From assembly GCF_030013205.1 (NCBI RefSeq), contig NZ_CP122648.1: 64,000 nt of DNA. One strand, 5' to 3'. The stretch comes from Escherichia coli. Lineage in GTDB: Bacteria; Pseudomonadota; Gammaproteobacteria; Enterobacterales; Enterobacteriaceae. This document shows positions 30,420-43,833 of the stretch, piece after piece (within the stretch, counting starts at the first letter, position 1; the number at the start of each line of letters is the position of its first letter). The position numbers and the translations under genes were made by a program. The notes beneath the pieces are model-generated. The model saw only the letters and a program-made list of their open reading frames with translations. It had not been told where the DNA came from and made no database searches.

Positions 30420-31649
30420 AATGATCCTGTTTGTACTGTCTTTTTATAATTAGTATGGAAAAGGTAACTCACATTGCCGTCGATCTATAAACGAACCTTA
30501 TGAGACTACCTCGACAGAGCGCATCTGCAAATGATTTTATGGCTGATTAGCGGCAACATGAAAAATTCGATGGAAGATGAAAGCACGGGCGTTGCTGGTG
30601 TTGTTTAAGGATTAAGCAGAGCACCCACAGGTTCGAGATATGAAACATAAAAGTCCGCATATGTACAAAATAGCACCCTGATGAGTCTGATAGACTGCAT
30701 TGCATTATAACCAGTAGGGAGGCGAGGTTAGGTATGTTTTTAGCATCATTGTTGAGACGTATTGCATTTAGTTACTACGATTATAAAGCTAATAATTTCA
30801 ATATTGGAAAAACAGACTTTGTTGTCATCCATATTCCCGATCAAATTGGCGATGCTATGGCCATCTTTCCAGTTATTCGGGCGATTGAAATGCATAAAAT
30901 AAAGCATCTTTTAATTGTTACTTCGACTATTAATTTAGAAGTCTTTAATGCGCTCAAACTTGAACAGACTAAATTAACATTAGTTACAATGACTATGCAG
31001 GATCACGCAACATTAAAAGAAATAAAAAATTTAGCGAAGAACATAACACTGCAATACGGTACGCCGGATCTTTGTATAGAGGCGATGCGTAAAAAGAACC
31101 TGAAAACGATGATATTTATCAGTCAGTTGAAAGCAAAAACGAATTTTCAGGTTGTTGGTTTAACCATGAAGTGCTATTCCCCTTTGTGTAAGGACGCGTC
31201 CCGGATGGATCAGAGTCTCCGGGCTCCCGTACCCATGACATGGGCATTTATGATGCGTGAGGCGGGTTTTCCAGCAGTCAGGCCAATATATGAATTGCCA
31301 CTAAGTGAGGATGTACTCGATGAGGTGCGCGAGGAAATGCGATCGTTAGGAGCTTACATTGCGCTCAATTTAGAAGGTAGTGCACAGGAACGTACATTTT
31401 CATTATCGATAGCAGAAAATCTAATAGCAAAAATTCAAAGTGAAACAGATATGCCAATAGTGATCGTTCATGGACCAAAAGGGGAAGATAAAGCCAGGGT
31501 ATTAGTGGATTGTTATAATAATGTCTTCCGTTTATCCTTATCACCCTCGATTAAACGTTCGGCAGCAATCATAAAAGATGCTTATATCGCAATAACTCCT
31601 GACACCTCAATATTACATATGGCAAGTGCCTATAGGTAATGACTCCAAC

Positions 31650-32153
31650 TTACTGATAGTGTTTTATGTTCAGATAATGCCCGATGACCTTGTCATGCAG
31701 CTCCACCGATTTTGAGAACGACAGTGACTTCCGTCCCAGCCTTGCCAGATGTTGTCTCAGATTCAGGTTATGCCGCTCAATGCGCTGAGTATAACGCTTG
31801 CTGATAACGTGCAGCTTTCCCTTCAGGCGTGATTCATACAGCGGCCAGCCATCCGTCATCCATACCACGACCTCAAAGGCCGACAGCAGGCTCAGAAGAC
31901 GCTCCAGTGTGGCCAGAGTGCGTTCACCGAAGACGTGCGCCACAACCGTCCTCCGCATCCTGTCATACGCGTAAAACAGCCAGCGCTGACGTGATTTAGC
32001 ACCGACGTAGCCCCACTGTTCGTCCATTTCAGCGCAGACAATCACATCACTGCCCGGTTGTATGCGCGAGGTTACCGACTGCGGCCTGAGTTTTTTAAGT
32101 GGCGGAAAATCGTGTTGAGGCCAACGCCAATAATGCGTGCACTGGCGCGACAT
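31650..32153 (-). CDS. insB: IS1 transposase InsB
   Basis: 167 aa [37 protein letters not shown]... Confidence 0.9.
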
Positions 32154-32347
32154 CCGACGCCATTCATGGCCATATCAATGATTTTCTGGTGCGTACCGGG
32201 CTGAGAGGCGGCGTAAGTGAACTGTAGTTGCCATGTTTTACGGCAGTGAGAGCAGAGATAGCGCTGATGTCCGGCGGTGCTTTTGCCGTTACGCACCACC
32301 CCGTCAGTAGCTGAACAGGAGGGACAGCTGATAGAAACAGAAGCCAC
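32072..32347 (-). CDS. insA: IS1 InsA
   Basis: 91 aa [39 protein letters not shown]... Confidence 0.9.
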
Positions 32348-32824
32348 TGGAGCACCTCAAAAACACCATCATACACTAAATCAGTAAGTTGGCAGCATCA
32401 CCGTGCCTATAATACCCCCGTTGTTGCAATTTATGCTGATTACAAAACGCGATGGCCCGCAATGGTCGATGTTTCGGAGTCAGTCGTCGTTGGGCAAAAA
32501 ATTGACAATATAAGTCTGGATGAATTCGCAAAGGCATTAAAAAGTGTTTTGGCGAGAATATGAGGCAGTATTTATGCATATTAATGCCGATCTGTTATGA
32601 ACGGTGGTGTCATCAATACTCTGTGGCTGGTCAATCATTACAGAAAGCCAGTCTTTGGAGCAAAGCTGTACTCACCGGATACAACCATAGTCACACCGAA
32701 CGCGAATCTGGCGGTATCGCATTTTTATTTATTCATTTTCTGTGAGAGAAGGGCAAGTTCTGTAGAGGGAATGTAAAAAAGAGTGCCCCGAATGGAGCAC
32801 TCTTTAAGGAATTATAGCGGAAAA

Positions 32825-42779: not shown

Positions 42780-42987
42780 TATTGATAAACCTCATCACAG
42801 ATTTAAGGGTGAACAAATCTCTGCCATTGCTGACATATAAGAATGAAACTGGATATTTATTACGGTGCTGTTTTAAAATCCTGCCGGGATTTCGTTATCC
42901 TGGTGAATAACTTTATCGACCGGATAACAGTTGCCTGGAATTTTCTGTTCGGTTGCTGCGGCCATACATTCCGGTAATGACTCCAAC

Positions 42988-43491
42988 TTACTGATAGTGT
43001 TTTATGTTCAGATAATGCCCGATGACCTTGTCATGCAGCTCCACCGATTTTGAGAACGACAGTGACTTCCGTCCCAGCCTTGCCAGATGTTGTCTCAGAT
43101 TCAGGTTATGCCGCTCAATGCGCTGAGTATAACGCTTGCTGATAACGTGCAGCTTTCCCTTCAGGCGTGATTCATACAGCGGCCAGCCATCCGTCATCCA
43201 TACCACGACCTCAAAGGCCGACAGCAGGCTCAGAAGACGCTCCAGTGTGGCCAGAGTGCGTTCACCGAAGACGTGCGCCACAACCGTCCTCCGCATCCTG
43301 TCATACGCGTAAAACAGCCAGCGCTGACGTGATTTAGCACCGACGTAGCCCCACTGTTCGTCCATTTCAGCGCAGACAATCACATCACTGCCCGGTTGTA
43401 TGCGCGAGGTTACCGACTGCGGCCTGAGTTTTTTAAGTGGCGGAAAATCGTGTTGAGGCCAACGCCAATAATGCGTGCACTGGCGCGACAT
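42988..43491 (-). CDS. insB: IS1 transposase InsB
   Basis: Identical 167 aa product to the first copy. Confidence 0.9.
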
Positions 43492-43685
43492 CCGACGCCA
43501 TTCATGGCCATATCAATGATTTTCTGGTGCGTACCGGGCTGAGAGGCGGCGTAAGTGAACTGTAGTTGCCATGTTTTACGGCAGTGAGAGCAGAGATAGC
43601 GCTGATGTCCGGCGGTGCTTTTGCCGTTACGCACCACCCCGTCAGTAGCTGAACAGGAGGGACAGCTGATAGAAACAGAAGCCAC
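43410..43685 (-). CDS. insA: IS1 InsA
   Basis: Identical 91 aa product to the first copy. Confidence 0.9.
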
Positions 43686-43833
43686 TGGAGCACCTCAAAA
43701 ACACCATCATACACTAAATCAGTAAGTTGGCAGCATCACCTACATTCCTGCATTGTTCTGTGAACACTGACTGCAATATCAACTGACTCTCCGGAAACAA
43801 GAAAAACCGTCAGAATAAGTGCAAATACTGGAT

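Follow-up and report, generated by a model that had tools for sequence, protein, structure and literature searches.

Two identical IS1 copies in yeeL and in a prophage ydfD-like gene most probably reflect separate insertions in a pig-associated Escherichia coli lineage

Within the window analysed here, a stretch of 64,000 nucleotides of E. coli, two identical copies of IS1 lie in direct orientation, one inside yeeL and the other inside a ydfD-like gene of a prophage. We are highly confident that one IS1 variant was inserted twice, in separate and simple events, in a pig-associated lineage, probably into yeeL first and into the ydfD-like gene later, and no observation speaks against this reading. 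Such a pair is ordinary genome wear and tear, and the kind of event is already known. A search of the window detected no IS1 copy besides these two, hereafter called the yeeL copy and the prophage copy.

Table 1. Positions of the two IS1 copies, their target duplications and the surrounding genes in the window, with the IS1 insertion points read in yeeL.
Feature	Position	Strand	Basis or remark
TGGAATTT, 8-bp target in RHS core gene	24653-24660		Inversion target in P15-25, ETEC6333 and ETEC6334; unoccupied in the window
yeeL 5' fragment, glycosyltransferase family 9	30734-31634	+	PGAP annotation of identical K_EC180 sequence
Target duplication of yeeL copy (9 bp, GTGCCTATA), left	31626-31634		Read directly; one copy only where the site is intact, in 5009 genomes
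yeeL copy of IS1, 768 bp	31635-32402	-	Repeat search; PGAP "IS1 family transposase, programmed frameshift"
Terminal inverted repeats of yeeL copy	31635-31657 and 32380-32402		19/23 positions match
insB' of yeeL copy, DDE catalytic part	31650-32153	-	Pfam DDE_Tnp_IS1, E = 2e-74
insA of yeeL copy, 91 aa, GTG start	32072-32347	-	Pfam Zn_ribbon_InsA and HTH_Tnp_IS1
A6C slippery motif of yeeL copy, -1 frameshift fusing InsA to InsB'	32090-32096	-	AAAAAAC, element positions 307-313
Target duplication of yeeL copy, right	32403-32411		Read directly
yeeL 3' fragment	32403-32563	+	PGAP annotation of K_EC180; rejoined ORF
yeeJ remnant, frameshifted, N-terminus missing, between the IS1 copies	32825-37400	-	PGAP annotation
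asnT, tRNA-Asn(GTT)	37842-37917	-	
mtfA	38018-38815	-	PGAP annotation; K-12 comparison
serU, tRNA-Ser(CGA)	38909-38998	+	Prophage begins directly beside
Prophage tyrosine integrase (int)	39026-40076	-	Pfam Phage_integrase; annotated frameshifted
DUF4224 gene at xis position	40076-40279	-	
Prophage exonuclease, 813 aa	40338-42779	-	Pfam Exonuc_VIII and Rv2179c-like domains
ydfD-like (DUF1482) gene, 3' fragment	42873-42971	-	Rejoined gene: 85 bits vs DUF1482
Target duplication of prophage copy (8 bp, TACATTCC), left	42965-42972		Single-copy in EC581 and EC556
Prophage copy of IS1, 768 bp, co-directional with dicBF operon	42973-43740	-	Identical to yeeL copy
Target duplication of prophage copy, right	43741-43748		Read directly
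ydfD-like gene, 5' fragment	43742-43846	-	Ends after residue 32 and one IS1-encoded codon
dicB	43834-44022	-	Pfam DicB, E = 6e-39
DicF small RNA	44197-44248	-	Rfam RF00039, 73.4 bits
yeeL IS1 insertion point, window			Duplication GTGCCTATA
yeeL IS1 insertion point, 6 bp upstream of window site			Duplication TGGCAAGTG
yeeL IS1 insertion point, 18 bp upstream of window site			Duplication CAATATTA
yeeL IS1 insertion point, ~110 bp upstream, opposite orientation			Duplication TAATAATG
Fifth yeeL IS1 insertion point			Strain 042, elsewhere in gene

Direct comparison of the two elements showed that they agree at 768 of 768 positions and in orientation, with the transposase genes of both on the minus strand, and that the identity ends exactly at the element ends, with 0 bases of extension on either side. 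The copies are spaced 11,338 bp from start to start and enclose an interior of 10,570 bp. Both have the length and the ends of the IS1 family, i.e., 768 bp bounded by 23-bp repeats (GGTAATGACTCCAACTTACTGAT and GGTGATGCTGCCAACTTACTGAT) that match at 19 of 23 positions. A -1 shift at the slippery motif would give a 232-aa InsAB' protein, and PGAP annotates the gene as "programmed frameshift". The domains of InsAB' were recognized at scores far above the cut-offs (PF03811, 73.9 bits; PF12759, 88.8 bits; PF03400, 248.5 bits), and by reading frames and Pfam the coding capacity of both copies is intact.

The junctions were read as GCAAGTGCCTATA–IS1–GTGCCTATAATACC in yeeL and as GCCATACATTCC–IS1–TACATTCCTGCATT in the prophage, where the ninth base is mismatched. 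The duplications of 9 bp and 8 bp, checked against empty sites, have the 8–9-bp length typical of the IS1 family, and flanking repeats this exact are expected by chance at only ~4^-9 for the yeeL copy and ~4^-8 for the prophage copy. When the empty sites were rebuilt in silico by removing each IS1 together with one copy of its duplication, the yeeL site could be aligned over its whole length with 5009 of the 5426 complete E. coli genomes (best match 99.5%, K-12 97.6%), and the prophage site was 100% identical over 208 bp in the pig strain EC556; its empty form was also read directly in EC581. Taken together, the distinct duplications and the empty sites show two independent insertions and, because each copy keeps its own matched duplication, neither has undergone recombination with a further IS1 after its insertion. 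A preliminary description of the window had proposed an identical pair in direct orientation, a 9-bp and an 8-bp duplication belonging to the respective copies, and independent transpositions, and all of these were borne out, the last also by EC581, which has the yeeL copy without the prophage copy. The span it had given, 31626–43748, corresponds to the precise outer limits of the two duplications, and the duplications themselves, whose failure on exact alignment it had named as a sign of artefact, were confirmed to the base.

Since IS1 is a multicopy element found at ~20 places per genome and repeats are well known to cause assembly errors, the element might have been misplaced at one or both sites. 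Exact duplications were found at both copies, however, the rebuilt empty sites match real genomes and the same junctions recur at 100% in 14 separate complete assemblies, so that an assembly artefact is effectively refuted and its probability is negligible. It is also very improbable that both copies and the interior arrived or moved as one, either as a Tn9-like composite or through one replicative event from which the pair resulted. As in Tn9, two identical direct IS1 copies flank a segment, here of 10.6 kb, and the architecture is formally that of Tn9. Nevertheless, the outer flanks (GTGCCTATA vs TACATTCC) are unlike and each copy has its own duplication; there is no single duplication around the IS1–interior–IS1 unit, which contradicts a composite of this type. 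Unlike in Tn9, the interior consists of ordinary chromosomal DNA arranged as in K-12 together with the end of a prophage, the copies differ in arrival time, as EC581 holds only the yeeL copy, and the segment is absent from plasmids: none of 72,556 plasmid records carried at least 80% of the interior, the best matches being partial and several of them to chromosome-sized records. In the 14 genomes with both of these copies, the matches sit at the chromosomal yeeL/prophage locus. The direct-repeat arrangement is a chance product and does not constitute a mobile unit.

The identity of the copies could alternatively be due to gene conversion among IS1 elements instead of recent descent from one active IS1. 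Each genome contains numerous IS1 copies, and other lineages carry differing IS1 variants (96–97% identical) at nearby yeeL sites, both of which speak for conversion. On the other hand, the 768-bp sequence recurs with 100% identity in many further places on chromosomes and plasmids of pig strains, which fits the recent spread of one variant, and new IS1 events were seen at these loci in sister strains. We therefore consider conversion unlikely as the source of the identity; the two processes are compatible, and the features described here are unchanged either way.

For two separate insertions, the distribution among strains suggests an order. Both insertions were found together in only 14 of 5426 complete E. 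coli genomes, all from pig strains, ETEC-named and O139:H1, with 100% identical occupied sites, and the records that were read came from Korea, Belgium and France. Because the sister strain EC581 carries the yeeL copy but has an empty prophage site with an intact ydfD-like gene, the yeeL copy was probably inserted first, assuming that EC581 shares it by descent. In EC581 the left junction of this copy was lost to an adjacent deletion, and descent is judged from the retained right junction and duplication copy only.

The insertion point of the first copy is in the 3' part of yeeL, and the gene is physically split. Removing the element in silico gave a 350-aa yeeL ORF with a Glyco_transf_9 match, and the order of genes is the same as in K-12 (serU-mtfA-asnT-yeeJ-yeeL-shiA); this restored frame and synteny agree with the earlier statement that IS1 splits yeeL. 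The genes previously listed between the copies (yeeJ, asnT, mtfA, serU, int, xis and the exonuclease) are all there, but yeeJ is frameshifted, int is annotated as frameshifted, and the xis position is occupied by a DUF4224 gene. Intact yeeJ measures 7983 bp in EC581 and 7020 bp in K-12, whereas the copy in the window is a pseudogene.

As a side result of mild note, yeeL may be a gene that IS1 targets recurrently across the species. IS1 was found in or near the 3' stretch of yeeL in 266 of 5426 complete genomes, in the orientation of the window in 96 and in the opposite orientation in 170; a same-orientation query joins only same-orientation insertions, and the reverse-orientation query was run separately. 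A bias in orientation was rejected, as genomes with the opposite orientation were even more numerous. The distinct insertion points that were read number at least five, and a duplication is readable at four of them (Table 1). Whether IS1 recurrently targets the 3' part of yeeL throughout the species seems to us evenly balanced. If it does, the local structure of this AT-rich stretch, to which a host factor may bind, might make it a hot spot for IS1, or loss of the glycosyltransferase might have been selected repeatedly. The yeeL of K-12 is likewise a pseudogene. A literature search for yeeL together with IS1 returned no relevant paper and only one unrelated one.

The prophage copy is positioned between the exonuclease gene and dicB, as had been described, but the site is not intergenic: the rejoined ORF, Pfam and PGAP showed that IS1 cuts a 62-aa DUF1482 (ydfD-like) gene after codon 32. 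By Rfam, Pfam and the PGAP annotation of K_EC180, ydfA/B/C, DicF, dicB and ydfD follow each other on one strand in the order of a dicBF-type early-left operon. The operon has been defined as ydfABC-dicF-dicB-ydfDE, with ydfD as a part of the dicBF transcript (PMC10448788), and lysis requires an intact YdfD protein (PMC8835842). The prophage copy lies in the middle of a ydfD-like lysis gene, which it physically splits, in the dicBF (early-left) operon that a lambdoid prophage carries at serU; of the 62 residues of the lysis protein, it would leave 32. As the preliminary description had noted, and as the gene order confirms, it parts dicB/DicF from the downstream genes, namely the 3' part of ydfD, the exonuclease gene, the xis-position gene and int. 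Insertions of IS1 are polar, and transcription started at the DicA-controlled promoter is therefore probably stopped at the copy before it reaches the exonuclease, xis-position and int genes.

As direct repeats of 768 bp, the two copies would allow the intervening 11.3 kb to be deleted by RecA-dependent recombination. The loss of serU by itself would be expected to be tolerated, since a serU deletion was obtained in Salmonella among deletions of nonessential tRNAs (bioRxiv 10.1101/2024.04.04.588050) and TCG can be decoded by serT (PMC11705081). A query for the predicted deletion junction, consisting of 600 bp of yeeL flank, IS1 and 600 bp of dicB flank, matched 0 of 5426 complete E. coli genomes at ≥80% coverage; only 14 genomes carry both copies, and with so few carriers the absence of the junction says little about selection against the deletion. 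The suggestion that direct repeats ~11 kb apart could mediate a deletion was thus correct as to spacing and orientation, and the deletion itself is a possibility. Of the deletion and inversion variants that had been envisaged in related genomes, an inversion was found and the IS1-to-IS1 deletion was not found in the 5426 genomes.

The sister strains carry several rearrangements at the two copies. EC581 has a 2438-bp deletion adjacent to the yeeL copy, and an 868-bp tandem duplication (IS1 plus 100 bp) was read in the sequence of ETEC4070 and recognized by its matching pattern in ETEC4071. An inversion of ~18.3 kb involving the prophage copy, with inverted copies of its 8-bp target, was read in P15-25 and detected by matching pattern in ETEC6333 and ETEC6334. 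These adjacent deletion, tandem duplication and inversion events at exactly the two copies suggest that IS1 is active now or was so recently in this lineage. Intramolecular replicative transposition is an established textbook model for IS1. The sister variants bear the exact signatures of IS26- and IS1-type replicative rearrangements, i.e., an adjacent deletion and inverted target copies, whereas none is present in the window. The inversion may instead have arisen by an insertion and subsequent homologous recombination, which leads to the same end structure. For IS26, two papers serve as examples of replicative rearrangement (PMC4471558, PMC10501869), and the literature found on adjacent deletion and inversion concerned mostly IS26 and other insertion sequences, with no report specific to IS1.

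Beyond careful annotation, the importance of the pair is small: it illustrates one IS1 variant reshaping a pig-associated E. coli lineage. The consequences are that yeeL is inactivated, that the prophage lysis gene is cut and that DicF/dicB are probably uncoupled from the exonuclease, xis-position and int genes, and the second insertion would be a further step toward a disabled prophage. The copies also appear to seed the deletion, duplication and inversion seen in sister strains. For assembly and typing, both copies and their variants may serve as structural markers and as a warning that the region is unstable.

Compared with IS1A of K-12 MG1655, the copies in the window share the length of 768 bp, imperfect 23-bp ends, insA/insB' with the A6C frameshift, the three Pfam domains and duplications of 8–9 bp. 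They represent another isoform, as their 768 bases, aligned to IS1A without gaps, show 93.4% nucleotide identity, and are named by PGAP only as "IS1 family transposase" (WP_236281370.1). The early operon resembles that of the Qin cryptic prophage of K-12, in which a DUF1391 (ydfA-like) gene, ydfB, ydfC, DicF, dicB and a ydfD-like gene occur in the same order, and the dicB-ydfD junctions of Qin and the window share ~91% DNA identity. Unlike in Qin, the operon in the window belongs to a prophage at serU, has the exonuclease, xis-position and int genes after it, and contains a ydfD-like gene cut by IS1.

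A repeat search over positions 29000-46000 detected a long direct repeat with a start-to-start spacing of 11,338 bp, and two 768-bp units with 23-bp inverted repeats at their ends. When the first unit (IS1#1, 31635-32402) and the second (IS1#2, 42973-43740) were compared directly, 768/768 positions were identical and the identity stopped exactly at each border. Because both copies have their transposase genes on the minus strand, they are direct repeats; no additional IS1 ends were found when the window was searched. IS1#1 is flanked by ...GCAAGTGCCTATA and GTGCCTATAATACC, and IS1#2 by ...GCCATACATTCC and TACATTCCTGCATT. 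The preliminary description had assigned a separate target duplication to each copy, and its coordinates coincide with the exact outer limits of both.

For site 1, a 209-bp query from which IS1#1 and one GTGCCTATA had been removed was searched against 5426 complete E. coli genomes, a genome being counted when 80% or more of the query aligned at one location. The empty site was present in 5009/5426 genomes, with the best match at 99.5% (a swine isolate) and K-12 at 97.6%. The reconstructed empty site 2 (208 bp) was 100% identical in pig strain EC556, and the related pig strain EC581, read directly, has ...GCGGCCATACATTCCTGCATTG... with one TACATTCC only. Since the empty sites hold a single target copy, both duplications are products of the insertions. 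The possibility of an assembly artefact was excluded, because the reconstructed empty sites match real genomes and 14 separate assemblies, all complete, have the same junctions at 100% identity (among the records read, the origins were Korea, Belgium and France).

Both yeeL and the ydfD-like gene are physically disrupted. Joining the yeeL fragments and dropping one duplication copy gave an open 350-aa glycosyltransferase family 9 frame. IS1#2 had been placed between the exonuclease gene and dicB; however, the DUF1482 fragments, joined in the same way, encode a 62-aa DUF1482 protein (85 bits), so IS1#2 lies inside this ydfD-like gene, whose frame is restored on rejoining. With IS1#2 in place, the frame keeps 32/62 codons and then runs through one IS1-encoded codon to a stop. 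This is the single correction to the preliminary description, which was otherwise accurate in observation and essentially right in interpretation.

Features of the IS1 pair, gene order from left to right, and other IS1 insertion sites at yeeL
Feature	Position	Content or remarks
9-bp duplication of IS1#1	31626-31634 and 32403-32411	flanks of the first unit
8-bp duplication of IS1#2	42965-42972 and 43741-43748	ninth base mismatched
Antisense RNAs (Rfam)	18991-19118 and 20552-20640	EFASI RNA and C4 antisense RNA (P1/P4-type); upstream of the RHS gene, between tRNA-Asn genes
Leftmost block		RHS core gene (21020-25012), TPR gene, yeeN, amn, shiA (29104-30419)
Next block		yeeL 5' fragment, IS1#1, yeeL 3' fragment
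Next block		yeeJ remnant (32825-37604; frameshifted, N-terminus missing), asnT, mtfA, serU
Prophage block		integrase (39026-40076; annotated frameshifted), DUF4224 gene at the xis position, 813-aa exonuclease
Next block		DUF1482 3' fragment, IS1#2, DUF1482 5' fragment
Rightmost block		dicB, DicF, ydfC, ydfB, DUF1391 gene, immunity region
tRNA cluster	54037-54346	three genes (Met, Thr, Gly), ~10 kb right of the prophage early region
yeeL target TGGCAAGTG	6 bp upstream	B771, 2018-18.25PC, Ec1120; differing IS1 variants
yeeL target CAATATTA	18 bp upstream	UID2404240038
yeeL target TAATAATG	~110 bp upstream, opposite orientation	Ecol_448
Further insertion site		strain 042

The chromosome of swine strain K_EC180 carries the region at 100% identity, as does a group of pig isolates named as ETEC strains, and the gene order was drawn from the K_EC180 annotation, tRNA and Rfam scans and Pfam. 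The K-12 backbone runs in the same order (serU-mtfA-asnT-yeeJ-yeeL-shiA-amn-yeeN) but without the prophage, and the gene names first given are therefore right. The window shiA apparently consists of two overlapping frames of 343 and 78 aa (1119 bp plus a 237-bp "hypothetical" in PGAP), whereas K-12 shiA is a single 1317-bp gene; the window copy is probably a frameshift pseudogene. The yeeJ remnant, about 4.6 kb long, has its frameshift near 35577-35602 and is full of 300-600-bp internal repeats, in contrast to the intact 7983-bp yeeJ of EC581. The pair of antisense RNAs suggests a P4-like integrated element.

Occupied site 1 was found at 100% identity in 12 genomes, and in ETEC4070 and ETEC4071 with an altered right flank. 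Occupied site 2 was found in 11 genomes, and also in P15-25, ETEC6333 and ETEC6334, where only the dicB-side junction adjoins this IS1; the two sets are the same 14 genomes. In EC581 (pig, Japan), IS1#1 is still present together with the right junction and its duplication copy, and the DUF1482 gene is intact; the prophage that holds this gene is ~99% identical to that of the window. If EC581 has IS1#1 by descent, IS1#1 would have come first and IS1#2 later.

IS1#2 has the same direction as the dicBF operon. IS1 insertions are strongly polar, so that read-through to the genes beyond IS1#2 (exonuclease, xis-position and int) is probably blocked; DicF and dicB lie upstream of it and would be left untouched. 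In K-12 the transcript is ydfABC-dicF-dicB-ydfD(E), from a DicA-repressed promoter (PMC10448788). In every relative inspected, the integrase beside serU carries a frameshift annotation near its C-terminus, and given this frameshift the prophage may be unable to excise. Together, IS1#2 and the frameshifted integrase would be consistent with a progressive disabling of the prophage.

The junction predicted from IS1#1 x IS1#2 recombination, which would delete 11.3 kb, the 10,570-bp interior included, was found in 0/5426 genomes; with only 14 carrier genomes in a few closely related lineages, this argues weakly that the deletion is not viable. Nothing in the interior is obviously essential. Four tRNA-Asn genes, one of them asnT, lie within the window alone; serU is among the nonessential tRNA genes deletable in Salmonella (bioRxiv 10.1101/2024.04.04.588050), and TCG can be decoded by serT (PMC11705081). 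A Tn9-like mobile unit is unsupported, because a plasmid search did not find the interior as a unit and the outer flanks share no duplication.

Other rearrangements were seen at these copies in sister strains. A stretch of exactly 2438 bp (window 29197-31634), comprising the 5' fragment of yeeL and the greater part of shiA, is absent from EC581 beside IS1#1, and the sequence left of the element runs into the shiA 3' end; this is a classic IS1-adjacent deletion. ETEC4070 reads yeeL 5', IS1, the first 100 bp of the right flank, IS1, and the right flank restarting at its first base, a tandem duplication of 868 bp (IS1 plus 100 bp; 31635-32502 in the window), and ETEC4071 has the same match pattern. 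Such a structure would be expected if IS1 on one sister chromosome transposed replicatively into the other, 100 bp downstream, or it may be an assembly error shared by the two genomes.

Direct reading of P15-25 showed that the segment corresponding to window 24653-42972, which measures 18,320 bp in the window and 14,992 bp in P15-25, is inverted relative to its flanks. An IS1 copy stands at each end, the two being inverted with respect to each other; the dicB-side junction of IS1#2 is kept by one and its exonuclease-side junction by the other. At the two new junctions are AAATTCCA and TGGAATTT, inverted copies of an 8-bp target that is single at window 24653-24660, inside the RHS core gene, and the inversion separates the RHS core both from its own C-terminal tip and from the TPR gene that follows. 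The match pattern of P15-25 recurs in ETEC6333 and ETEC6334. The inversion may have arisen by intramolecular replicative transposition of IS1#2, or a third IS1 may have inserted in inverted orientation and homologous recombination followed; both routes give the same final structure. The P15-25 yeeJ remnant is 1290 bp against 4576 bp, and the IS1 copies of W13-16 and ETEC1701 are 3328 bp closer together, which fits a yeeJ deletion of the P15-25 type. ETEC4068 carries an IS2 within the interval. None of these changes is present in the window, whose arrangement is one from which the variants can be derived.

Across the species, yeeL is a recurrent target of IS1, which lies in or near the yeeL 3' stretch (31500-31640) in 96 genomes in the window orientation and in 170 in the opposite one. 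The directly read junctions fall at five or more different insertion points; three of these lie within 18 bp of one another, and the IS1 variants differ. This suggests either a local hot spot or recurrent selection for yeeL loss. Duplications of 8 bp rather than the usual 9 bp were seen in four examined IS1 events (IS1#2, the inversion target, UID2404240038 and Ecol_448).

Each unit in the window has the full IS1 anatomy, with 768 bp, terminal repeats matching at 19/23 positions, a 91-aa insA with a GTG start, an AAAAAAC slippery motif and the insB' frame. As read from the sequence, a -1 shift at AAAAAAC would give a 232-aa InsAB', which matches Zn_ribbon_InsA (73.9 bits), HTH_Tnp_IS1 (88.8 bits) and DDE_Tnp_IS1 (248.5 bits) in Pfam. 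Both are textbook IS1 insertions that public genomes already have annotated, and the window IS1 shares 93.4% identity with IS1A of K-12 MG1655.
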